Shown: positions 1-9,885 of the stretch, in pieces
Layout: every line of letters begins with the position of its first letter
Numbering within the stretch: the stretch's first letter is position 1
Virus record (IMG/VR): IMGVR_UViG_2534681835_000035
Reading direction: 5' to 3' (one strand)
DNA length: 9,885 nt
Origin: a virus
Taxonomy: Duplodnaviria > Heunggongvirae > Uroviricota > Caudoviricetes
The notes under the pieces: generated by a model
Database searches by the model: none
What the model was told of the DNA's origin: nothing
Seen by the model: the letters and a program-made list of their open reading frames with translations, nothing else
Translations under genes and position numbers: made by a program

Positions 1-348
1 GCCTGCGGCAACGGCTTTCCGGCTGATGGTCGTACGGACCTTTTTACCCCGGAGAACACCGGCAAGTCCCATAACCGCCATGAGACGTGCCACTGTACAT
101 CTGGCCACCCTGATTCCTTCCCGTAACAACTGACGCCAGACTTTACGCACACCGTACACCTGATGATTTTCATCGTATACGCGCTGTATCTCTCTCTTCA
201 GCCAGTCGTCGTGCTGCGCACGGGCACTGCGTTTATCCGGATGATGTCGCTGTTGCTGACAATGGTAATACGTTGACGGGGCAATATGCAGTTCGCTGCA
301 TACCGGTCCGACCCCGTACTGCTCACGCAGCTTATCCAGCAGTGGCAT
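1..348 (-). CDS. IS3-family transposase OrfB (DDE catalytic subunit), N-terminal part only; 3' end outside window
   Basis: The ATG at 348..346 overlaps the orfA stop (ATGA). Translation [16 protein letters not shown]... continues to position 1 as ...GVLRGKKVRTTISRKAVAAG with no stop, in the -1 frame relative to orfA as expected for IS3-family OrfAB frameshifting. Confidence 0.85.
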   Translation of the reverse strand, partial: MPLLDKLREQYGVGPVCSELHIAPSTYYHCQQQRHHPDKRSARAQHDDWLKREIQRVYDENHQVYGVRKVWRQLLREGIRVARCTVARLMAVMGLAGVLRGKKVRTTISRKAVAAG

Positions 349-674
349 CATTTTTTCCAGAGGCGGTCGAACTCCGCCTTCGCAAAATAAGCGGAAGCCT
401 GGCGAAGGATATCGTTACTGCGGCGCAGTTCACGATTTTCACGTTCCAGCTCTTTCAGACGCTGACGTTCAGCGCTGGTGAGCCCACCATCACCGCCCCC
501 GGTATCCCGCTCATGCTGGCGAACCCAGACACGCAGAGTCTCCGGCGTACAGCCAATCTTTGGGGCAATGGAACAAATTGCCGCCCACTGTGAGTCATAT
601 TCATCCTGACTTTCCAGAACCATACGAATCGCCCGCTGACGGACTTCGGGGGAAAAACGAGTATTTTTAGTCAT
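348..674 (-). CDS. IS3-family transposase OrfA (HTH and leucine-zipper subunit)
   Basis: 108-aa [60 protein letters not shown]...[36 protein letters not shown], recognised as IS629/IS1203-type OrfA. An A-rich slippery run (CTG GAA AAA ATG A) sits at its 3' end, overlapping the orfB ATG. Confidence 0.9.
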
Positions 675-699
675 CCTGTTTACCTCTTTCTCAGGGAGT

Positions 700-1155
700 T
701 TAGTCTCCAGGATTTCCGGGGCGGTTCAGTTCAGCCATTTTGCGCTTAGTCATCCCCCGCCCCACATAACGCTGACTCAGAACATTGAGCAGCCCGGGAT
801 AACCTGCCAGTACTTCACCAATAACCCTGTCGATTATTAACGCCTCTGAATCGGTACAATGTGCCAGCCAGCTTTTTTGATTGCCGTTGATCATATCCCG
901 CAAAAAAGCCTCAAGTTCAGGTTTGTCCAGACCCGCTTTTTTCATCCTCCGGAGCGCCTCGTTAATTGCCGTTTTTGTCAGCTTTTTAGAGGTCAGTAAT
1001 TGGTTGAACATATTTCCCGTCTTACCGTCGCCAATATACGACCAACGCCCCCACATACGCAGTTTCCCCTGGATCCAGACACTTTCCAGCGTTTTCAGGC
1101 GTAAATGCTCACCGCTTTTGCCTGTAATTTCCGGGTATATCATATTTATGCTCAC
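700..1155 (-). CDS. Putative late-gene antiterminator (Q-like), 3' end disrupted by the IS insertion (last ~9 codons and the stop are IS-derived)
   Basis: 151-aa ORF directly downstream of rusA with an ATGA start/stop overlap, which is the position Q occupies in lambdoid phages. The reading frame crosses the IS terminus at 728/729, so the tail ...LNRPGNPGD and the stop are encoded by the IS inverted repeat. The Q assignment is by position and loose resemblance only, not by a recognised motif. Confidence 0.5.
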
Positions 1156-1511
1156 TCACTTTCAATTTTGTAAATCTTCACGCCCAGCCGCCCACCAGAA
1201 ACGAGCTGGCCGCGCACAATATTGATTTCATCAAACTGCTCGTCGTCTATGAGAAGTCCGGCATGCGTCAGCGCATCCAGTGGTGCTTTCAGGATATTGT
1301 CCAGGTCACGACGGCGCTTATCCGGTGGCTCTGCAATAATCTTTATCGCCAGCCTTCCGGACAGGTTTAATTTCAGCCGCTGCTGGCGAACAATAAGTGC
1401 CACATCCCGGCGATAACGCTCACCGGCTTTTGATACAAAATATGTGCTGCCACGACGTCGCCAGTAGGTGTTCACCGTCGGCGGGTAAGGCAAAACAAAC
1501 TCTATACGCAT
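1152..1511 (-). CDS. rusA: RusA-family Holliday junction resolvase (crossover junction endodeoxyribonuclease)
   Basis: 119 aa, MRIEFVLPYPPTVNTYWRRRG...PDKRRRDLDNILKAPLDALTHAGLLIDDEQF, matches the E. coli RusA pattern (PWPPS.N.YYR ... PDRRRRDLDN..KA..DALT.AG...DD.Q). Sits in the usual nin-region position upstream of Q. Confidence 0.9.
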   Translation of the reverse strand: MRIEFVLPYPPTVNTYWRRRGSTYFVSKAGERYRRDVALIVRQQRLKLNLSGRLAIKIIAEPPDKRRRDLDNILKAPLDALTHAGLLIDDEQFDEINIVRGQLVSGGRLGVKIYKIESE

Positions 1512-1523
1512 CAGTAACCTCTT

Positions 1524-2627
1524 TTACCCGAGCACGCCGGTTGCAAAGGCGTGATCAAGAAAACGAAAAATTAAATCAACCTGGGAACCATGCTTTTCTT
1601 CGAACGCCAGCGGATCCGCATGAAGCTCGTTGTGATGCTCCCGACACAGCGGTAGCGTGAAAATATCGTGGGATTTTGTTCCCATTCCGCCCTGACCATG
1701 ACCAATCAGATGATGAGGATCGTCCGCTGGCTTACCACAACACGCACACGGCTGTGTCTTTACCCAGCGTGTGTATTTCTCATTTACCCAGCGGCGACGT
1801 TTAGGTCGTTTCATGAAGGATTCCGGAGACTCCGGATCAACGGCAATGCTGACCACCGTCTTTTCCTGTGGTGGGTTCTGTTGCTGGTGGGTGTGAGGCG
1901 GTAGCGCAATATTTTTTGTGCGCTGCTTCAGTATGCTGGTGGCGGTCTGTTCTCCCGGTATGATGTCGCTTTCACGGTATACGGAGCGGATTTTTTCCGC
2001 CGGTAATCCCAGAGAGCGACGCGATACTGCCTCAGGTAATGCGTCCACCACCTGATTGCAGACTGCCCACCAGGATAATTCAGCCAGCGATAATTCCCGC
2101 TCCTGCGTGCCATTCATTACATGGCGTATGACGTCAATCATCCAGGCTGTCAGATTTTGTTGAGTAAGTTGCTCAAGTGATTCGGAGGTCTGGTCGCGCA
2201 GCTGGTTGTCGCAGTGCCAGCACAACACCATTGCGCCAGCACCGTAACTGTGAATAACGGTTTCGCTGTGATGATAATCGCCGTGTGGCCACTGGCAGGA
2301 TTTCACGTGACGTAATAACCAGTCAGACAGTGCACCAGCGCCGCCAGCTGCACGAATCACCCGCTCATCGCTGAAAAATGGCAGCAGTGATTTATCTTCC
2401 GCCAGCGGCTGGCGAACAGCAGGAACCGCTCCAGATGGCAGCGCCCGCATGTTTTTCGGTTCCGGCTCCACCAGCACCCTGCCGCGATGAAAAACTGGCA
2501 ATGATTCACGACCGGGCTTAAGGACCACCAGCCCGAGTTCCGGAACCAGAACAGGTCGAAGTAATACCCGCACATTACCTCCAGACGCGCTGACGGTAGC
2601 AGGCATGTGTCCGTGGCAGATGTGCAC
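1524..2627 (-). CDS. YdfU-like (DUF968-like) prophage protein with a C-terminal Cys/His-rich, HNH-like putative metal-binding motif; start codon uncertain
   Basis: 367-codon ORF from GTG 2627 (alternative ATG at 2606). C-terminal segment KTQPCACCGKPADDPHHLIGHGQGGMGTKSHDIFTLPLCREHHNELH has paired Cys and His residues. The gene sits 12 nt upstream of rusA, the same neighbourhood ydfU has next to Q in the Qin prophage. The DUF968 assignment is from memory. Confidence 0.65.
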   Translation of the reverse strand: MHICHGHMPATVSASGGNVRVLLRPVLVPELGLVVLKPGRESLPVFHRGRVLVEPEPKNMRALPSGAVPAVRQPLAEDKSLLPFFSDERVIRAAGGAGALSDWLLRHVKSCQWPHGDYHHSETVIHSYGAGAMVLCWHCDNQLRDQTSESLEQLTQQNLTAWMIDVIRHVMNGTQERELSLAELSWWAVCNQVVDALPEAVSRRSLGLPAEKIRSVYRESDIIPGEQTATSILKQRTKNIALPPHTHQQQNPPQEKTVVSIAVDPESPESFMKRPKRRRWVNEKYTRWVKTQPCACCGKPADDPHHLIGHGQGGMGTKSHDIFTLPLCREHHNELHADPLAFEEKHGSQVDLIFRFLDHAFATGVLG

Positions 2628-2847
2628 GAACAGGAAGATATACAGAAACGGTCCAGGTCAGACGATCAGCGTTCAGACTCCGCTCCACACGGACACCGCG
2701 ACGCAGATACGCCTCTTGAAGCATATCTGCCTCATCGATCGTACAGAACAGATAGTGAAACCAGCCATACTGAGGCGCACGAAAACGCCTCCCCTGCTTA
2801 ATTTCCGGGTCGGCTTCAGAATTGTGGGATTTTATGTGTTGTGTCAT
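2575..2847 (-). CDS. Hypothetical 90-aa protein overlapping the 5' end of the YdfU-like ORF by 53 nt in a different frame
   Basis: ATG at 2847 with a GGAG Shine-Dalgarno 6 nt upstream. The first ~60 residues look protein-like (MTQHIKSHNSEADPEIKQGRRFRAPQYGWFHYLFCTIDEADMLQEAYLRRG...); the last ~25 residues look like an out-of-frame readthrough. It occupies the position of rem in Qin, but no sequence match is claimed. Confidence 0.45.
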   Translation of the reverse strand: MTQHIKSHNSEADPEIKQGRRFRAPQYGWFHYLFCTIDEADMLQEAYLRRGVRVERSLNADRLTWTVSVYLPVRAHLPRTHACYRQRVWR

Positions 2848-2921
2848 CGGATTCTCCGGTGACAGCAGGTGTCAGTTGTTCAGGCTGACTGCGCGAATTG
2901 TAAGGCAATACGCCGGAATGT

Positions 2922-2950
2922 ACAAACAGAAAACCCGTCAGTAAGACGGG
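2922..2950 (-). terminator. Rho-independent terminator downstream of the YgiW-like gene
   Basis: On the minus strand a CCCGTC-TTACT-GACGGG hairpin (plus 2934..2950) is followed by TTTTCTGTTTGT, about 20 nt after the TAA stop at 2969. Confidence 0.55.
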
Positions 2951-2968
2951 CTTAACAAGCAGGGGCGG

Positions 2969-3313
2969 TTACTTTAATAATTTCAGTGCCTTTACATCAA
3001 CTTCAACACTGCTCAGGTCTTTATCAATTTCACCCTCAATTCTTACTTTGTCTTTCGGAGAAACATTCTGCCCGGCCCATACGCTGTCATCAATATCCGT
3101 GACAATTGTCCCGCTATTGTCACGAAACTCATAACGTTCATCACCCACTTTTTTAACGATGCTCCCTTCAAGGATAACCCATGCATCATCCTTCAGTTCT
3201 TTTGCCTGCGCTACTGTTGAACGCTCTGCTTCTGGCCCCTGGAAACCACCCTGCTGTGCAAAAGCGCCAAAAGACACACCGGAAATAAGTGCTGCAATCA
3301 ATACCTTTTTCAT
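2969..3313 (-). CDS. YgiW/YdeI (BOF) family periplasmic OB-fold protein with signal peptide
   Basis: 114 aa, MKKVLIAALISGVSFGAFA-QQGGFQGP..., with a signal peptide and AFA-QQ cleavage site, and the family pattern GGFQGP...W..L.G.IV......Y.F.D.SGTI..DID...W.G..V.PKD.V.I.GE.DKD..SVE.DVK. AGAGGA Shine-Dalgarno 7 nt before the ATG. Confidence 0.85.
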   Translation of the reverse strand: MKKVLIAALISGVSFGAFAQQGGFQGPEAERSTVAQAKELKDDAWVILEGSIVKKVGDERYEFRDNSGTIVTDIDDSVWAGQNVSPKDKVRIEGEIDKDLSSVEVDVKALKLLK

Positions 3314-3432
3314 TCATAGTCCTCTTTCAGAGATGAACATTCAAACAGCATTTTCAGTATGGTAAAGCGCGGGTGCGTTGAGGATGCCTGACACATCAGA
3401 GGTGGCGGGAGATTACTCCCCCGCCTGGTCTC

Positions 3433-3588
3433 TTACTTCTCAGATTCGTAGTCTACGAAGACAGCGACCTCCGTCTGACCGGTTCGGATTCGCACCTCGC
3501 AGAGGTCTTTCCTCGTTACCAGTGCCGTCACTATGACGGTTAAACAGATGACGATCAGGGCGATTAACATCGCCTTTTGCTGCTTCAT
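3433..3588 (-). CDS. hokD: Hok/Gef-family type I toxin (HokD/RelF-like small membrane peptide)
   Basis: 51 aa, MKQQKAMLIALIVICLTVIVTALVTRKDLCEVRIRTGQTEVAVFVDYESEK, near-identical to my recollection of RelF/HokD and carrying the Hok signature (LT/VTRK.LCE..IR.G..EVA.F..YES). AAGGAG Shine-Dalgarno 9 nt upstream of ATG 3588. The ORF track extends the same frame to an upstream ATG at 3645. Confidence 0.85.
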   Translation of the reverse strand: MKQQKAMLIALIVICLTVIVTALVTRKDLCEVRIRTGQTEVAVFVDYESEK

Positions 3589-3878
3589 AGCCTGCTTCTC
3601 CTTGCCTTTCGGCACGTAAGAGGCTAACCTACATGTGTTCAGCATGGATTGAGCCTCAGATTAATGTTAAGCGTCTTGCAGGACGCGTAATGTTAACTGG
3701 GGCTTTTCTCTATCTGCCGTTGGTGTTCATGCCCGAGGCAGATAGCCTCAAGCACCCGCTGCAATTCTACTTAACTATCCTTTTCCCGCAAACCGTTTTT
3801 ATCCCCAGCGGCAAATCGAATACTCCACCAGCGCCACCGCCATCGCAATTCCTACCGTTGTGAATGCTTCAGGCCAGG
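3589..3878 (-). promoter_or_regulatory. Long hok leader: candidate promoter, upstream in-frame mok-like start, and likely site of an antisense Sok-like RNA on the plus strand
   Basis: 290 bp separate the upstream gene from hok. Candidate minus-strand promoter TTGCGG-N16-TAGAAT (plus 3791..3764). Stable inverted repeats in the leader (TATCTGCC 3711..3718 with GGCAGATA 3737..3744; GCGTC 3671..3675 with GACGC 3682..3686) and an imperfect hairpin just 3' of hok (3404..3425). By analogy with hok/sok loci, an antisense RNA would be transcribed rightward from about 3600..3700, but its ends are not determined. Confidence 0.35.
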
Positions 3879-4436
3879 TCATTGATTCACCTCCTGCGGC
3901 GGTTCTGGTAGCGACATCCAGTGGGTTGCTTGCCTAAGATCATTACCCGGACTAACTGCTATACCTCCGCGCCGGAACGTGCCTCCGAGATAGCGTGCGG
4001 AATATATTAATGGCCCAGCCTCGCTATCGATATTCATCGAAATAAGCACGTTCTGGCTCTTTTCAGGCATTCGCTCAGTACAGCTTATCCAGCCATCCAG
4101 AGTTATCGGAGATCTGGTTGACGTTTCCGAGATTTCCCGAAAATTGTTGGTTGACGAATTCTTATTTTCCCGAAAGTTTCCGGCCTGAAGCATGGCGACG
4201 CGGCAGGCGTTCCAGCCATCAGCATATGTTTTAGTTACACCGTCGAGATGGCAGGTAAGCAAATCCATTTCATCAGGCACTACCATTGCTATCGGCTCTG
4301 CTTCCAGTGATGCCAGCGCGATACGAAACACATTAGCCAGCAGGCTGTCTGAAGACTTGTTATCGTGCGCCGAGTCGCTCAGGAAGCCTGTGATGTATGA
4401 TTTAATCTCCGCGCGTTCTCTGGTAATAGTGCTCAT
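3879..4436 (-). CDS. DUF551-domain prophage protein
   Basis: 185 aa; C-terminal GWISCTERMPEKSQNVLI...YSARYLGG...THWMSLPEPP matches the DUF551 signature as I recall it (W...ERLPE ... THWMPLPEPP). AAGGA Shine-Dalgarno 9 nt upstream; start is 1 nt from the preceding gene's stop. Confidence 0.8.
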   Translation of the reverse strand: MSTITRERAEIKSYITGFLSDSAHDNKSSDSLLANVFRIALASLEAEPIAMVVPDEMDLLTCHLDGVTKTYADGWNACRVAMLQAGNFRENKNSSTNNFREISETSTRSPITLDGWISCTERMPEKSQNVLISMNIDSEAGPLIYSARYLGGTFRRGGIAVSPGNDLRQATHWMSLPEPPQEVNQ

Positions 4437-4437
4437 A

Positions 4438-4656
4438 TCAGTTTTCCTTATACGGATTAATTTTATTGTGCAGTGCGCTGAATGATTCCCATGTCACATC
4501 GGTATATAGCTCAATAACTGGTTCAAATGTCCTTCCAATTATCCAGACCAGTAATAGCGGGGATATCGGTATCATCAACACTATAAACAGAATGAAAAAC
4601 AGAAACTCTGTTGTTCTGCTCTTTCGTGGGTAATTTTTTTCTAAATAATGTTTCAT
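4438..4656 (-). CDS. Small hypothetical membrane protein (one predicted transmembrane helix) in an AT-rich patch
   Basis: 72 aa with hydrophobic core FLFFILFIVLMIPISPLLLVWIIG. Tightly coupled to the DUF551 gene. The ATG is preceded by AGGAGG, then a CCGCCC-GAAA-GGGCGG hairpin, then 6 nt. Confidence 0.55.
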   Translation of the reverse strand: MKHYLEKNYPRKSRTTEFLFFILFIVLMIPISPLLLVWIIGRTFEPVIELYTDVTWESFSALHNKINPYKEN

Positions 4657-4662
4657 TTCTTA

Positions 4663-4684
4663 CCGCCCTTTCGGGCGGCCTCCT
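4663..4684 (-). other. Shine-Dalgarno, stable hairpin, start codon arrangement in the 5' UTR of the small membrane-protein gene
   Basis: Minus strand: AGGAGG (4684..4679), perfect 6-bp stem with GAAA loop (4678..4663), UAAGAA, AUG (4656). The unfolded SD-to-AUG spacing is about 22 nt and becomes about 6 nt if the hairpin forms. Confidence 0.35.
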
Positions 4685-4783
4685 GATGTTCTGAGGGTGC
4701 AGGAATCCCTCCGGTTAAGGATTTAATAAAAATCGTTTCTGATTTAAATCTTCAGTATTTAGTTGTTAGTTGGTTTATCGCCT

Positions 4784-5095
4784 TTATGCTTCAGCCTTAT
4801 TTCGCAACCAGACACAAACCGGGCCATCTTCCGTATCATGAATGGAACCAATAAACCAGCCATCGCCCTCTGGTCGTTCCGGTTCCCATGCAGAAATATC
4901 AGCATCACACGCATCAAGGTCAGCACATCCTTCATCTCTGAAGCAGAGGACGTATTGAAGATTATTTTCCTCCATCCAGGCGTTAAACTCTTCCGTTGAA
5001 ATATATTCCCGACCATCACAGAATTTTTCATATTCAGGATGTGTCCAGTAGCCATATCCGTCACGAACTACCGGCATTTCTTTAATTTTACTCAC
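4784..5095 (-). CDS. Hypothetical small, strongly acidic protein
   Basis: 103 aa with about 24 Asp/Glu against 9 Lys/Arg by my count (DEGCADLDACDADISAWEPERPEGDGW...). GTG start at 5095 with AGGAGG 6 nt upstream, overlapping the previous gene's stop (GTGAGTAA). Confidence 0.6.
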   Translation of the reverse strand: MSKIKEMPVVRDGYGYWTHPEYEKFCDGREYISTEEFNAWMEENNLQYVLCFRDEGCADLDACDADISAWEPERPEGDGWFIGSIHDTEDGPVCVWLRNKAEA

Positions 5096-5315
5096 TGTTA
5101 ACCTCCTGCAACGCTACACGATACGCCTTCTTTATCCACGCCTTACTGCCATATAATTTCGTCTTCATAATAAACACACCTGCACGACTCGCCGATATCC
5201 CCGGACAGGTTAACAGCACAGCATCCACCACACGGTTATGCTTCCGAAACTCCATTACAGTACTGCTGATAACCACCTGCCCCACCGGGCCGTAATCCTG
5301 ATACAGGATTTTCAC
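5088..5315 (-). CDS. Hypothetical 75-aa protein
   Basis: ORF translationally coupled to both neighbours (4-nt overlap upstream, 8-nt overlap downstream). No recognisable family. Confidence 0.5.
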   Translation of the reverse strand: MKILYQDYGPVGQVVISSTVMEFRKHNRVVDAVLLTCPGISASRAGVFIMKTKLYGSKAWIKKAYRVALQEVNSE

Positions 5316-5593
5316 GCAGACACCCTCCTGTCGAAATAAACGTAGTTATTCACTATGCGCAGCGGCATGCCTAATTTTCTGGCAATTTCCCTTCTTTGCA
5401 TGCCTCTCTGATGCAGTTGCCGCGCCAGCTCAATATCACGCTGAGAATATTTTGCCGACGGGTGAAAATCACCACGTAACATCATGCTGATGCCCAGCTC
5501 CCGTGCCTTCGTTCTCACTGCCGCTTCAGTTCGTCCGATAAGTGCGCCAACGCTTTTTACCTTCATCGTTCCCGCACACTGCCGGAGTATCAT
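5312..5593 (-). CDS. Hypothetical small protein with two helix-turn-helix-like segments; start uncertain
   Basis: ATG at 5593 (MILRQ...); alternatives are ATG 5566 and the ORF-track start 5716, which would overlap the upstream gene by 91 nt. HTH-like segments SVGALIGRTEAAVRTKARELGI and QRREIARKLGMPLRIVNNYV. Confidence 0.45.
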   Translation of the reverse strand: MILRQCAGTMKVKSVGALIGRTEAAVRTKARELGISMMLRGDFHPSAKYSQRDIELARQLHQRGMQRREIARKLGMPLRIVNNYVYFDRRVSA

Positions 5594-5625
5594 GATTTCC
5601 GCCCGGCACCACGTCTTCCACCCAC

Positions 5626-6360
5626 TCACCGCTGCTGTTCTCTGGTGGCGGTAATATCCCGGAGAATATCCCGGCACTTGTTCAGCTCCCGCAGCGCGGC
5701 GCAGACTCGCTCCCACTTCTGAACCTGACCTTTTGCCCGGCGCAGCTCGCGGTTAGCCACATGCAGCGATGGTAAAATCAGACCATCCGGATGCTTTCTG
5801 GTGAACGACGGCTGTGACTGCACTGTGACCGCCACACTTTCCGTTTTTATTTCTTCCTGTGTTTCCGCTTCCCCGACTGGTAACGCAACACCTGCTGGCT
5901 GAGGAAAGGCTTTACCATCCGTTTCCGCTATGGATGCGGCTTTCGGCTCTGCCGGTAAATCAGCGCCCGGTATGCAGTACCGAAATTTACCGCCCTGATT
6001 CACGCGAATCAGACGCCCTTTGCTGATTGCCATGGCCAGTGATGAATTCGCCCGGCGGGAGGTAATCCCGAACATCAGTGCCAGCTCATCCGCCGTTTGT
6101 GGGCCATGATGTTCAATCGCCTCAGTCAGCATTTGCGCTGTCACTTTCGGTACCGGTGACACTGGTTCACTTTCACCAGCCTGAATCAGCCACCACATCG
6201 AACCCTTGTTATCCGCTTCACCACGGCGCTTCAGTTTCCACAGTTCGTTGACAGCATCTTCGCGGCTGATTCCAAGGCGCGATGCCACTACCTGTGAAGA
6301 GGCTTTTTTCAGTGCTTTCAGTGCGTCAAATACAGTTTCCATTAAAACGTCCTCCAACAA
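5626..6360 (-). CDS. YdaW-like (DUF1627-like) prophage protein with two winged-helix-like repeats
   Basis: 244 aa, 3 nt downstream of the DnaC-like gene, as ydaW follows ydaV in Rac. Internal repeats [24 protein letters not shown] and [29 protein letters not shown]. Family name is from memory. Confidence 0.65.
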
Positions 6361-6363
6361 AAA

Positions 6364-7110
6364 TTACTTCACAACCCTCTGATTGCTGACATTTGGACGC
6401 CAGCTATCCCAGTTAAACGTCACCCACCGACCACCGTTCATGGTCATGCGGTCCATAATCCTCTCACCAAGAAGCGTGCTCATTGCGGCATGATTCAGGT
6501 TTGTTAACATCCCGACACTGCACAGTGATGCTGTCCGGCGATCAATTATCTGGTGTAATACCACCTGCTCGTTTTTCGTCTCCCGCTGAACGCCTATTTC
6601 ATCCAGGACCAGCAAATCAACACTGCAAAGCTCCTGTAAAAATTTTTCCCCGGATTTGCCGTTGTCGTAGCTGTCATGCAACACGCTCATGACATCAGAC
6701 ACGGTGACGATAATCACGCTGCGCCCCTTCGCCATCAGCCGGTTACCCATCGCCGCTGCAAGGTGATTTTTCCCGGTGCCGGTTTTACCGCTGAACACAA
6801 AATTCGTGCACCCGGTCATCAGTTCGTCAGCTATGGATTTGGCCTGGCTCAGCGCGTATTTTTGCCCGTCGTTCTGCACCTGATAATTCGCAAACGAGCA
6901 TTTGCTGTGCAGAGGCTGGATGCCCGAACGATTCAGGATTTTTTCCACCCGCAACTGGTGATTCTGGCGGTTAATCTCCTCGCTGCGTTTTCGTCCTTCA
7001 ACAAGTTGCCATTCCCGCCACTCCTCCACCGTCCGGTACGGTGGAACCGACGCCTGTGGTGCAAGTCTGCGAATACGTTCAAGAACCCCGGCTGCCGCAA
7101 TGTTTTTCAT
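6364..7110 (-). CDS. DnaC-like helicase loader (AAA+ IstB-like ATPase), phage replication protein
   Basis: 248 aa, collinear with E. coli DnaC: RSGIQPLHSKCSFANYQV, Walker A FSGKTGTGKNHLAAAMG, Walker B DLLVLDEIGVQ, C-terminal WVTFNWDSWR. Confidence 0.9.
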   Translation of the reverse strand: MKNIAAAGVLERIRRLAPQASVPPYRTVEEWREWQLVEGRKRSEEINRQNHQLRVEKILNRSGIQPLHSKCSFANYQVQNDGQKYALSQAKSIADELMTGCTNFVFSGKTGTGKNHLAAAMGNRLMAKGRSVIIVTVSDVMSVLHDSYDNGKSGEKFLQELCSVDLLVLDEIGVQRETKNEQVVLHQIIDRRTASLCSVGMLTNLNHAAMSTLLGERIMDRMTMNGGRWVTFNWDSWRPNVSNQRVVK

Positions 7111-7116
7111 GCCACA

Positions 7117-7770
7117 TCACCCCCTGAATCCCGGCGGAATTTCGGTATCCGGTTCAGAAATATGATTCACACAACGCTGGTTGTTCGTGCCGCTTACCGG
7201 GAGCAACCAGGGGTTTTCAAAATTCCGGTCCGGCCCAAAAAACGTCGTCGCTCGCTGAACAAATTCCGTTCCCGTTTTCCCGGTAGCCGCCAGGTATCTT
7301 GCGTAACGCCTCACACCATCCAGTATGGCCTCTGGTGGCACCCCCTCGCGTAATCTGGCCTTCCAGGCACTGAAAGCGGATTTCTTCGGGTTTGCCCCAG
7401 CACGCAACGGGTATTCCCGCCAGACCTGTTCGAACACATCCGGATAATCCACTCGTCCCACAGGCTGCCCGGTGTTTTCCGGGACTACCCGATCGGCTTC
7501 CCGCTGAATGGCGGAATCGGCTTCAGGCTGCTGCAGTTGGTGTGATTGCTCCGGCCTTGCGGTCATCACCTGCTGCACAGCGCCCGAATCGGCTTTCAGC
7601 GCATACGCTGAATCGGCTTCCGGTGTCGTGCCTGCTGGCTGACCAGGATTGACGGTCTGAACATCCCCTGCCTGGTTCGTGGCGTTTTTTACGCCATGGA
7701 CCATAGTGTTTTGATCTTCTTGATCTGTATCTTTATCTGTATCTTTATCTGTCGTGACTCGTCGTGACAT
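7117..7770 (-). CDS. Replication-initiator-like protein, C-terminal part (ORF2), possibly the 3' portion of a single gene frameshifted relative to 7745..8188
   Basis: 217 aa, ending 6 nt before the DnaC-like gene. C-terminal domain DYPDVFEQVWREYPLRAGANPKKSAFSAWKARL...TGKTGTEFVQRATTFFGPDRNFENPW resembles a replisome-organiser C-terminal motif. The 5' end lies inside the iteron array and encodes TDKDTDKDTD from tandem repeats. Confidence 0.6.
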   Translation of the reverse strand: MSRRVTTDKDTDKDTDQEDQNTMVHGVKNATNQAGDVQTVNPGQPAGTTPEADSAYALKADSGAVQQVMTARPEQSHQLQQPEADSAIQREADRVVPENTGQPVGRVDYPDVFEQVWREYPLRAGANPKKSAFSAWKARLREGVPPEAILDGVRRYARYLAATGKTGTEFVQRATTFFGPDRNFENPWLLPVSGTNNQRCVNHISEPDTEIPPGFRG

Positions 7771-7799
7771 GTGCGTGACATTTCGTGACGCGCCGTGAC
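7723..7799. repeat. Putative replication-origin repeats: 2.5 copies of a 12-bp tandem repeat (ATCTGTATCTTT) followed by five direct CGTGAC iteron-like repeats at 10-11 bp spacing
   Basis: CGTGAC at 7753, 7763, 7774, 7784 and 7794. The 12-mer is at 7723..7734 and 7735..7746 with a partial copy at 7747..7758. An AT-rich tract lies immediately to the left (about 7700..7750). Confidence 0.6.
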
Positions 7800-8188
7800 A
7801 ATCGCCATTTTGTTCCCGCTTTCTTTCCCTCTCTCGCTGCGCCCTCTTGCGCTCTGCAGGAGATTTTGCGGTTTGACGAAATATTGCCGTTGTCCTCTTT
7901 AAGCACCTGGCGTTTTTCCCATCCAGTGATTAAATCACCATCAAGTACCCGCCCCTGCATCGTCTGCAAAATTGAATCAATTACCTCTTCTGTCACGTCG
8001 AGCGCACTTGCCAAATCTTCTGTCGTGACATCAATGTGACCTCGCGTGACATTTCGTGACGCGCTCACCAGGAGGTGGATATACACTGCCATCACTGTTG
8101 CAATTGGCTGCCCTGACACCCTGGCAATTGTTCGCCACTTAGGGTCATTTGGCATGTCATGCCATAATCTGAGCCAGGCGTTAGCCAT
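7745..8188 (-). CDS. Replication-initiator-like protein, N-terminal part (ORF1)
   Basis: ATG at 8188 with AAGAGGTGA Shine-Dalgarno (the ORF track starts at GTG 8194). N-terminal MANAWLRLWHDMPNDPKWRTIARVSGQPIATVMAVYIHLL resembles phage replication-initiator DNA-binding domains. The ORF ends inside the first iteron cluster and overlaps ORF2 by 26 nt in the +1 frame. Confidence 0.6.
   Translation of the reverse strand: MANAWLRLWHDMPNDPKWRTIARVSGQPIATVMAVYIHLLVSASRNVTRGHIDVTTEDLASALDVTEEVIDSILQTMQGRVLDGDLITGWEKRQVLKEDNGNISSNRKISCRAQEGAAREGKKAGTKWRLSRRVTKCHAHVTTSHDR
7992..8064. repeat. Second iteron-like cluster: CGTGAC at 8024, 8045 and 8055, a TGTGAC variant at 8035, and an inverted copy GTCACG at 7992..7997
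   Basis: The 20-mer CGTGACATTTCGTGACGCGC occurs at both 7774..7793 and 8045..8064. Spacing is again 10-11 bp. Confidence 0.55.
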
Positions 8189-8259
8189 ACTCACCTCTTC
8201 TGATACCGAATCTTTTTACTCACGAGTTGCCGGAAGCGATTCGATACGGCTATTGTCAG

Positions 8260-8685
8260 TCAATGTACTGCCACAGCATTTCCTGCCGGGCCACCACGGT
8301 TCATCTGATTGAAACCGGCGATTGCCACTGCGACAAAATCATCAGCGTCTCTCACCAGTCGCTCCCGCGTCTCCACCAGCTCCCGAAAATAAGCTGAACT
8401 GTGGCTGCGCATTCTGGCCACCAGCAAAGGTGGCATTGCCTTTTCGATCGCTGGTAACAACGCCTGAATTTTTTCAACTGCATCAGGGGTGTCTTTCTCT
8501 ACCCAGCGGAAAATTTTCTGGGTATTGCGAGCCAGGGCTTCCGGATGGCTGTCGTCATACAGTTCAGGAAACGTCATACCCAACTCAAAATAAGCCTGGG
8601 TTATTCCAGCTGCTGGAACTTTTTCGCCATCAGGACGCGCCCAGGCATTCATCGCCATGCGGATGTGTTCATGCTTGATTTTCAT
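8260..8685 (-). CDS. YdaT-like prophage protein (occupies the cII position downstream of cro)
   Basis: 141 aa beginning MKIKHEHI and ending ...VH, matching my recollection of Rac YdaT-family proteins. AGGAG Shine-Dalgarno 8 nt upstream; overlaps the Cro-like gene by 17 nt. Confidence 0.6.
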   Translation of the reverse strand: MKIKHEHIRMAMNAWARPDGEKVPAAGITQAYFELGMTFPELYDDSHPEALARNTQKIFRWVEKDTPDAVEKIQALLPAIEKAMPPLLVARMRSHSSAYFRELVETRERLVRDADDFVAVAIAGFNQMNRGGPAGNAVAVH

Positions 8686-8950
8686 GAATCAAGCTCCTAG
8701 TAAGTGGTTGTGTTAACGTTTTGGTATCTTCCAGCTCGGGCCAAATATTCATCCAATCAAAAGGCCTTAGTTGCTGACGTGTAACTTCACCATTACTGGC
8801 TCGCTCAATAAGGACACATAACGATGCCCCTAACATTTGACCTTTACTCAATGCCTTTCTTAGATAACCGATGCTAGTACCACACTCACATGCAAACATA
8901 CGCTGTTCATCTGACGAAAGAGAATTGAGAAATATTCTTAATTCTTCCAT
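8669..8950 (-). CDS. Cro/YdaS-like HTH regulator
   Basis: 93 aa with a Cro-like motif (GTSIGYLRKALSKGQMLGASLCVLIERASNGEVTRQQLRPFDW). AAGGAG Shine-Dalgarno 6 nt upstream. Divergent from the repressor gene. Confidence 0.7.
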   Translation of the reverse strand: MEELRIFLNSLSSDEQRMFACECGTSIGYLRKALSKGQMLGASLCVLIERASNGEVTRQQLRPFDWMNIWPELEDTKTLTQPLTRSLIHENQA

Positions 8951-9049
8951 AGCTACTCCTTAGTAAACACAGCAAGAATACCCACAGGTAAACAAAAGTC
9001 AATACCCTTGGGTTGTTTACCTTGCGGTAATCGCATCTATTATTTACCT
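8951..9049. promoter_or_regulatory. Divergent promoter/operator region between the Cro-like and repressor genes (OR-like)
   Basis: Three TACC-N4-GGTA-type inverted repeats: 8979..8990 (TACCCACAGGTA), 9003..9014 (TACCCTTGGGTT, one arm imperfect) and 9018..9029 (TACCTTGCGGTA). Leftward PR-like promoter TTGACT (plus 9002..8997), 16-nt spacer, TATTCT (8980..8975). Rightward PRM-like -10 TATTAT (9038..9043) ends 6 nt before ATG 9050, suggesting a leaderless repressor mRNA. Confidence 0.55.
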
Positions 9050-9467
9050 ATGGACAAATATGAATTTAGACGACAACAACTCATCAAAATTCGTGATGAG
9101 AAATGCGATGGTAAAGCGGTTAACGTGGCCAGAAAGATCGGTCGCGAGCCTTCTTATGTATCAAGAATGTTGTACCCAGAGGGGAAAAAGGAAAAAACGG
9201 ATCGCTGATGATATGGTGGAGATTATAGAAGAGTCCTTTGGGTTACCCCGGGGATGGATGGATGGTATCGTTTCATCATCAACGAACACAGCCTCCAATT
9301 ATGAAACAAGGGTTCTAACGCCACGACAACGTATTTTTTTAGATCTCTTAGACGAACTGCCAGAAAGTGAAGCGGATAACTTATTAAAAACTCTTGAAGA
9401 GAAAAAACAGTATTACAATATGATCTACGAAGAAATCCGTAAAAAGAAAGCACAAAACGCATCATAA
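9050..9467 (+). CDS. CI/RacR-like prophage repressor, reading frame interrupted by an apparent +1 frameshift in the G4A5G2A6 tract at 9181..9197
   Basis: Frame A (ATG 9050) encodes an N-terminal HTH (KAVNVARKIGREPSYVSRMLYPEGKK) and stops at 9206..9208. Frame B continues from about 9198 with protein-like sequence RIADDMVEIIEESFGLPRGWMDG...LLKTLEEKKQYYNMIYEEIRKKKAQNAS to 9467. Removing one A from the A6 run would fuse them into a protein of about 138 aa. Confidence 0.6.
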
Positions 9468-9509
9468 CTCACCAAACAACCAGTCACCAGTTAAGACACA
9501 TCAAAAAAT

Positions 9510-9546
9510 TACCCATGGGTATTTACTTTTTAAATACCCATGGGTA
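9510..9546. promoter_or_regulatory. Two perfect 12-bp palindromes TACCCATGGGTA, 25 bp centre to centre: OL-like operators flanking a putative rightward promoter
   Basis: Palindromes at 9510..9521 and 9535..9546 share the TACC-N4-GGTA architecture with the OR-like sites. Between and over them: -35-like TTTACT (9522..9527), 17-nt spacer, -10-like TATCCT (9545..9550). Confidence 0.55.
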
Positions 9547-9732
9547 TCCTTCCTTTCATACCAACCCACCCCGTCCCACAGAACGCAGGGCAATACTTCG
9601 AGTTACCAGGCAGTGGTCAGGGGGTAAGTAGCCAGCCCGAGGCGTAAGAACATGACGGCAGGGTTCAACTTTAATAACTATGCAGCAGGTTTTTGTTCCG
9701 CTACCCCGGCGTTAAGGGGAAATGAGGTCAGC

Positions 9733-9885
9733 ATGGATACTATCGATCTTGGCAACAGCGAATCTCTGGTATGCGGCGTGTTTCCCAACCAGGACGGTAC
9801 GTTTACCGCGATGACGTATACCAAAAGTAAAACGTTTAAAACCGAAGCTGGCGCGCATCGCTGGTTAGCAAGAAACTCCGACTGA
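9733..9885 (+). CDS. Small early protein (YdaF/YdaG-like), first gene of the rightward operon leaving the immunity region
   Basis: 50 aa, MDTIDLGNSESLVCGVFPNQDGTFTAMTYTKSKTFKTEAGAHRWLARNSD, with GAGG Shine-Dalgarno 6 nt upstream of ATG 9733 (the ORF track starts further upstream at 9652). Resemblance to Rac YdaF is from memory. Confidence 0.5.
   Translation: MDTIDLGNSESLVCGVFPNQDGTFTAMTYTKSKTFKTEAGAHRWLARNSD

Follow-up and report, generated by a model that had tools for sequence, protein, structure and literature searches.

Assemblies from 454 data are documented to be marked by homopolymer-length miscalls with few substitutions and by the artificial frameshifts which these miscalls produce in A/T runs (PMC2935434; PMC3277595), and non-homopolymer single-base errors have also been recorded in such assemblies (PMC3277595). 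Two further described systems are relevant when adjacent protein-like reading frames are offset: frameshift pseudogenes found in cryptic lambdoid prophages of E. coli, and the orfA/orfB pair of IS3-family elements such as IS1203 with its programmed -1 frameshift. In this study, a stretch of 9885 bases, referred to as the window, was analyzed, which comprises a lambdoid prophage's early region and comes from an old draft assembly of E. coli DEC8E, a strain of serotype O111:H8 (PMC5121400). An earlier note on this DNA had described three +1 offsets, in a repressor gene, in a replication initiator gene and possibly in a YdfU-like gene. Two of them, in the repressor and the replication initiator, are present, while the YdfU-like site carries no frameshift. 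The two frame breaks very probably represent three single-base errors in the DEC8E draft consensus, and the third site consists of two neighboring genes; the finding is therefore an ordinary one. All features are listed in Table 1.

Table 1. Position of the features in the window (numbering from the first base of the window).
Feature	Position	Strand	Remarks
Window	1-9885		start of contig AIGJ01000049.1 (bases 1-9885), from the DEC8E draft (E. coli O111:H8)
IS1203 (IS3 family), right-hand part	1..726	-	contig begins inside the element; boundary near 726 approximate
Q-like antiterminator (DUF1133)	700..1143	-	C-terminus cut off by IS1203
DUF968 / HNH-like gene (YdfU-like)	1524..2573	-	intact, 349 aa; GTG start 2573
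90-aa gene	2575..2847	-	WP_000191872.1; phrog_1212; separate gene
Replisome organizer / replication initiator	7117..8188	-	true product 356 aa, WP_001262366.1
Extra base	7876	A on +, T on coding -	TTTG[A]CGAAA
cI-position repressor-like gene	9050..9467	+	true product 139 aa, WP_000362152.1
Two adjacent A-runs	A5 9185-9189; A6 9192-9197	+	A6 and A7 in finished genomes

In the repressor-like gene, the ORF starting with MDKYEF begins at 9050 and reaches its stop codon at 9206-9208 after 52 aa (9050..9208), and the remainder is read in the +1 frame up to 9467. The offset reported around position 9190 is thus a property of the window sequence, with the break located at 9181-9198 in the context GGGG-A5-GG-A6-C. 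Each of the two A-runs is one base short, and the net loss of two bases destroys the repressor frame. A single event at this site was considered and rejected: no contiguous 2-bp deletion converts G4A6G2A7 to G4A5G2A6, and two separate events are therefore needed. The gene is annotated as intact in strains 8E, 11128 and FWSEC0005. A search of Pfam with the repressor gave no hits; in PHROGs, the intact 139-aa protein matched phrog_5736 over its full length. The A5/A6 allele was found in none of 821 complete E. coli genomes.

The replisome organizer gene is split in the window into an N-terminal ORF (7745..8188; 147 aa) and a C-terminal ORF (7117..7770; 217 aa). The frame offset noticed here before is real in the window sequence as well, and its cause is the extra base at 7876, within the previously indicated range of 7770-7930. 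The association of the frameshifts with A-rich runs holds for the repressor break, which lies inside the A-runs, and fails for the base at 7876, which breaks the replisome-organizer frame outside any homopolymer run. Again, the gene is annotated as intact in 8E, 11128 and FWSEC0005, and the intact protein was aligned with phrog_3729 in PHROGs over positions 1-356 of 356, with no hits in the Pfam search. The insertion was present in 0 of 1222 complete E. coli genomes and missing in the drafts DEC8A, AFAE02 and AIFR01; it is private to the DEC8E draft.

For the YdfU-like gene, the possible offset around 2600 turned out to be the normal junction of two tightly packed genes belonging to separate families. 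The TAA stop codon of the 90-aa gene (2577-2575) is followed one base on by the GTG start codon of the DUF968 gene, which is preceded by a GGAGG ribosome-binding site, and the overlap of the ORFs (1524..2627) is merely a mechanical upstream extension of the DUF968 ORF. The DUF968 protein matched PF06147 in Pfam, and its residues 1-348 were aligned with positions 1-333 of 334 of phrog_96 in PHROGs; the 90-aa protein gave no hits in Pfam and was assigned to phrog_1212 by PHROGs. A split DUF968/YdfU gene was rejected, since the protein starting from this GTG covers nearly the whole of phrog_96 and the 90-aa ORF represents a family of its own. In each of the finished genomes inspected, the annotation gives the pair as two genes, with an identical DUF968 gene.

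For comparison with an independent assembly, the finished genome of strain 8E was used, which appears to be DEC8E according to its name, its serotype, a unique IS insertion and the near-identity of the sequences. Its alignment with the window shows exactly three differences, each a single-base indel, and no substitution; all three draft indels are missing in 8E, and both genes are intact. Over 19,208 nt, the draft contig and 8E differ by 4 indels and 1 substitution, and 3 of the 4 indels are A-runs of 6-7 undercalled by one base. One of these undercalls, the fourth indel of the contig at position 16954, causes a frameshift at codon 10 of an unrelated integrase adjoining tRNA-Asn, so that a gene outside the prophage is also broken by an A-run undercall. 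The finished O111 genomes, among them the reference strain 11128, are separated by 1 SNP and no indels across 9160 nt.

The reported IS insertion in Q was found in the finished genome of 8E, too, which carries the identical IS1203 insertion with Q annotated as a pseudogene lacking its C-terminus. In the window, the Q-like antiterminator was aligned with positions 1-140 of 176 of PF06576 (Pfam). Other O111 genomes match the window from position 727 on only and have an intact DUF1133 gene; among 5426 complete genomes, the IS1203-in-Q structure was detected only in O111:H8 strain 8E. This insertion is the sole real damage in the window. Since it is real, the prophage is truly damaged, though not through the frameshifts described above. 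Within IS1203, orfA (348..674) is annotated with a programmed frameshift and a pseudoknot.

The A5/A6 repressor allele occurs in the drafts DEC8E, DEC8A, AFAE02 and AIFR01 and also in the Logan read-level assemblies of SRR094977 and SRR094151, and the finished genomes 8E, 11128, FWSEC0005, OkiPb01688, 98-3133 and DEC5B have A6/A7. In 18,000 nt, AFAE02 differs from O157:H16 98-3133 by the two repressor indels only, with no substitutions; AIFR01 differs from the finished O55:H7 DEC5B by the two repressor indels and 1 substitution only (18,001 nt), and DEC8A differs from 11128 by 3 indels, every one a homopolymer undercall, and 1 substitution. The frameshifted products are deposited solely as DEC8E or DEC8A proteins. 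As the allele is contained in the Logan contigs, it is read-borne and no assembler artefact, which fits a systematic base-calling error and also a real allele. Of the window's 18 runs with at least 6 bases, just 2 are affected, and the error is thus context-specific rather than general.

One rival reading is that the DEC8E prophage is decaying by pseudogenisation, with its repressor and replication genes truly frameshifted. That IS1203 interrupts Q in the draft and in finished 8E alike would agree with such a decay, as would the prophage integrase, which bears a frameshift according to the annotation of finished genomes, and the presence of A5/A6 at the read level in the Logan assemblies. This reading is nevertheless very unlikely, because finished 8E, which shares the unique IS insertion, is free of all three indels and the alleles were found in 0/821 and 0/1222 finished genomes. 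It would also require two separate 1-base deletions in the repressor that do not restore the frame, and an identical origin in O111, O157:H16 and O55:H7, always in drafts only; moreover, the ratio of indels to substitutions in the window is 3:0, and a gene outside the prophage is similarly hit. The absence of the indels from finished 8E, their recurrence in drafts and the affected integrase together mean that the frameshifts are no evidence of decay. Taking them as a sign of a decaying cryptic prophage, as in the earlier note, is therefore not tenable, the indels being missing from finished 8E and from all finished E. coli genomes checked; the homopolymer indel errors that the note had named as the alternative are favored by the finished-genome comparison, the recurrence in drafts and the broken unrelated integrase.

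We conclude that both breaks are artefacts of the draft, that the one in the repressor is systematic, and that GGGGAAAAAAGGAAAAAAAC is a motif at which the miscall occurs reproducibly. Very probably, the purine tract GGGG-A6-GG-A7 was undercalled by one A in each run in a reproducible and sequence-specific manner, and one spurious base was inserted at 7876 in the draft consensus. In the real chromosome, the repressor (139 aa) and the replisome organizer (356 aa) are then each encoded by an intact single ORF. The DEC8E draft is presumably a 454 assembly, and the error signature points to flow-based (454-type) sequencing as the probable cause.

The insertion at 7876 alone could be real, i.e. a private mutation of the sequenced laboratory stock, with the repressor indels being artefacts. 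The signature of a systematic error is missing at this site, which is non-homopolymer and not recurrent in other drafts. This explanation is improbable, however, as the insertion occurs neither in finished 8E nor in the 1222 finished genomes, the host draft shows about 1 indel error per 5 kb, and non-homopolymer single-base errors are documented in assemblies of this kind (PMC3277595). It would be a long shot to regard GGGG-A6-GG-A7 as a hypermutable phase-variable switch whose short allele was dominant in the cultures behind the old drafts, or the 7876 insertion as real and inactivating prophage replication.

Programmed recoding, in which the full-length repressor or initiator would be made from two frames through a ribosomal frameshift or slippage during transcription at the A-runs, is hardly conceivable. 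In all finished genomes and in the family profiles of PHROGs, each homologue is one uninterrupted ORF; the zero-frame codons GAA AAA ACG give no X XXY YYZ heptamer, the required shift is +1/-2 and not -1, and a slippery motif is missing at 7876, even though the repressor break lies within A-rich runs of the slippage type and the neighboring IS1203 has a true programmed frameshift.

The importance of these results lies mainly in quality control: frameshifts in this contig ought not to be counted as pseudogenes or taken as evidence of prophage decay, and the same caution extends to the drafts DEC8E, DEC8A, AFAE02 and AIFR01. About 1 indel per 5 kb corresponds to approximately 1000 spurious indels genome-wide in such a draft. 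Among the deposited proteins, EHW28035.1, EHW28036.1, EHW28038.1, EHW09851.1 and WP_244429259.1 represent fragments or frame-fused products of artefactual origin.

Compared with the known systems, the locus resembles IS1203 orfA/orfB in that two adjacent protein-like ORFs are out of frame; unlike there, the homologues of repressor and initiator are single ORFs elsewhere, and no conserved slippery site or pseudoknot is present. With the frameshift pseudogenes of such E. coli prophages it shares a defective prophage, an IS-disrupted Q and an integrase annotated as frameshifted, whereas its indels occur in no finished genome, including that of what appears to be the same strain, and are not mutations of the prophage. 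In contrast to 454 homopolymer miscalls, one of the four DEC8E indels (7876) is a non-homopolymer insertion. In its other properties the DEC8E draft is like 454-type drafts: its differences are almost all single-base indels, mostly undercalls in A/T-runs of 6-7 bases, with few substitutions, the miscall is reproducible across strains, and single genes appear as two ORFs.

The frame breaks in the repressor and the replisome organizer are assembly artefacts rather than biology. Exact protein matches and the retrieved contig trace the window to AIGJ01000049.1, with which it agrees completely over bases 1-9885; this contig belongs to the draft assembly GCA_000249875.2 (E. coli DEC8E, serotype O111:H8; PMC5121400). 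According to the ORF map and annotated relatives, it holds the early and regulatory region of a lambdoid prophage, in the order IS1203 (partial), a truncated Q-like antiterminator (DUF1133), RusA, a DUF968/YdfU-like protein, a 90-aa gene, a BOF-family stress protein, Hok, several small genes, DUF1627, an IstB/DnaC-like ATPase, the replisome organizer, a YdaT-like protein, a cro-position regulator and a divergently transcribed cI-position repressor. Of 5426 complete E. coli genomes searched by megablast, about 100, mostly O111 STEC, matched at least 80% of the window at ~100% identity; only the finished O111:H8 genome 8E (NZ_CP077465.1), probably an independent assembly of the DEC8E strain, carries its structure in one piece, including IS1203 in Q. 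Further feature coordinates are compiled in the table.

In the alignment, exactly three single-base indels and no substitutions separate the window from 8E. Among themselves, the finished O111 genomes show a single SNP and not one indel across the 9160 nt that they have in common. Two of the indels lie in the repressor. Its ORF (MDKYEF...) starts at 9050 and stops at 9206-9208, and the rest of the protein follows in the +1 frame up to 9467. Here the window reads GGGG-A5-GG-A6 and 8E reads GGGG-A6-GG-A7, so that each of two adjacent runs is one A short. The repressor is intact (139 aa, WP_000362152.1) in 8E, the reference strain O111:H- 11128 and FWSEC0005 and matches phage family phrog_5736 over its full length. 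An 81-nt query over the A-runs matched 821 complete genomes, not one of them identically; every match contained two gaps (97.6%). The 52-aa fragment and a frame-fused product of 135 aa were limited to the drafts DEC8E, DEC8A (AIGF01), AFAE02 and AIFR01 and to Logan SRR094977 and SRR094151, read-level assemblies of sequencing runs. All six carry A5/A6, and all six finished genomes compared carry A6/A7. The 52-aa fragment was grouped at 90% identity with 318-aa archaeal ABC-transporter permeases, which seems to be a clustering oddity of the protein collection.

The third indel is an extra A at 7876 (TTTG[A]CGAAA). It shifts the frame within the minus-strand replisome organizer, between an N-terminal part of 147 codons (8188..7745) and a C-terminal part of 217 codons (7770..7117). 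The organizer is intact (356 aa, WP_001262366.1) in the same three finished genomes and matches phrog_3729 at 1-356/356. With a 71-nt query centred on 7876, all 1222 complete genomes matched gapped at 98.6%, none identically. The earlier note had placed both breaks at or near A-rich homopolymer runs; this holds for the repressor, whereas the insertion at 7876 is not of the homopolymer kind and occurs in the DEC8E draft alone. At this level of draft quality, a sporadic consensus error is its simplest explanation; that the sequenced stock carried a real private mutation there is unlikely. Within the cluster that contains the 147-aa fragment (P0002-P0004), other assemblies show different frameshifts in this gene a few bases from 7876, for example BDZ90339.1 (4.87-Mb chromosome), which reads ...NGNISHNRK....

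The third offset proposed, at ~2600 in the YdfU-like gene, is no frame break. The 90-aa gene (2575..2847) ends with TAA at 2577-2575, and the DUF968 gene starts one base later with GTG 2573, behind GGAGG. Read from this start, the DUF968 protein covers the full length of phrog_96 (1-333 of 334). The 90-aa protein has a family of its own, phrog_1212, and the annotation of every finished genome inspected lists two genes here. The longer ORF to 2627 is a mechanical upstream extension.

Over 19,208 nt, the DEC8E contig and 8E differ by four single-base indels and one substitution, which corresponds to ~1 indel per 5 kb; three of the four are undercalled A-runs of 6-7. The fourth (A6 read as A5, contig position 16954, outside the prophage) shifts the frame at codon 10 of a separate integrase next to tRNA-Asn, called as 395 aa in the draft versus 424 aa in 8E, so that another gene of this draft shows the same defect. 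For each of the other drafts, the closest finished genome served as the reference. AFAE02 versus O157:H16 98-3133 (18,000 nt) and AIFR01 versus O55:H7 DEC5B (18,001 nt) showed only the two A-run indels, with zero and one substitution, respectively; DEC8A versus O111:H- 11128 (11,985 nt) showed three indels, all homopolymer undercalls, and one substitution. The same paired, non-compensating one-base deletions in three serotype lineages, and in drafts only, are not credible as biology. The recurring allele looks like a sequence-specific base-calling error, and since the independent Logan assemblies reproduce it, the error sits in the reads and not in the assembler.

The error profile combines homopolymer-length miscalls, a bias to A/T runs and a scarcity of substitutions. 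The DECA-collection drafts were reportedly made with 454 chemistry (Hazen et al. 2012, J Bacteriol), and we infer this platform for DEC8E. Such an error profile is documented for flow-based pyrosequencing and the artificial frameshifts in its assemblies (PMC2935434, PMC3277595). Programmed frameshifting or slippage was rejected: all homologues consist of one ORF, the zero-frame codons GAA AAA ACG form no slippery heptamer, and the shift needed is +1/-2. IS1203 contains the one genuine programmed frameshift of the window (orfA 348..674), whose pseudoknot, annotated in 8E, maps to about 277-393.

The earlier note read the offsets, together with the IS in Q, as a decaying cryptic prophage, with systematic assembly indels as the alternative. 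The latter proved correct, as 8E lacks all three indels and other drafts repeat the A-run allele. Decay as the cause of the frameshifts is rejected, and these lend it no support. Only two other features support prophage decay. The IS1203 insertion, unique to 8E among the 5426 complete genomes, is real because this finished genome also carries it, and the prophage's own tyrosine integrase, outside the window, bears a frameshift annotation in three finished genomes (8E, 98-3133, DEC5B). The draft and 8E agree in the sequence of this integrase, which seems to be a genuine pseudogene common to them and speaks more strongly for a cryptic prophage than the frameshift sites do. The artefactual frame breaks are useful as a quality-control flag for these drafts and for fragment proteins deposited from them.

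Features of the prophage region (window coordinates unless a contig or locus handle is given; L007, DEC8E contig)
Feature	Position	Strand	Remark
IS1203 (IS3 family), partial	1-726		draft contig begins inside the IS
Q-like antiterminator (DUF1133)	700-1143		C-terminus removed by IS1203 insertion
NirD/YgiW/YdeI (BOF) stress-tolerance gene	2969-3313	-	signal-peptide-like N-terminus; cargo between replication and nin-like regions
Hok/Gef-family toxin gene	3433-3588	-	cargo between replication and nin-like regions
A/T-rich tandem repeat, 12 nt x3	7718-7752	-	after the GTCACG copies, inside replisome-organizer gene
Five GTCACG copies, spacing 10-11 nt	7753-7799	-	inside replisome-organizer gene
Prophage tyrosine integrase	L007 14518-15543; L012 4598-5648; L013 14991-16041; L014 14992-16042		adjoins tRNA-Ser/mtfA

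The ORF overlap seen earlier in the initiator gene falls on the repeat region 7718-7799, which encodes a TDKDTDKDTD repeat. GTCACG occurs 14 times in the window (4.5 expected). Judged by sequence, its clustered copies and the A/T-rich repeat look like an iteron array plus AT-rich region, and the region is probably the phage replication origin. This predicted origin would lie within the initiator gene, an arrangement like that of lambda O.
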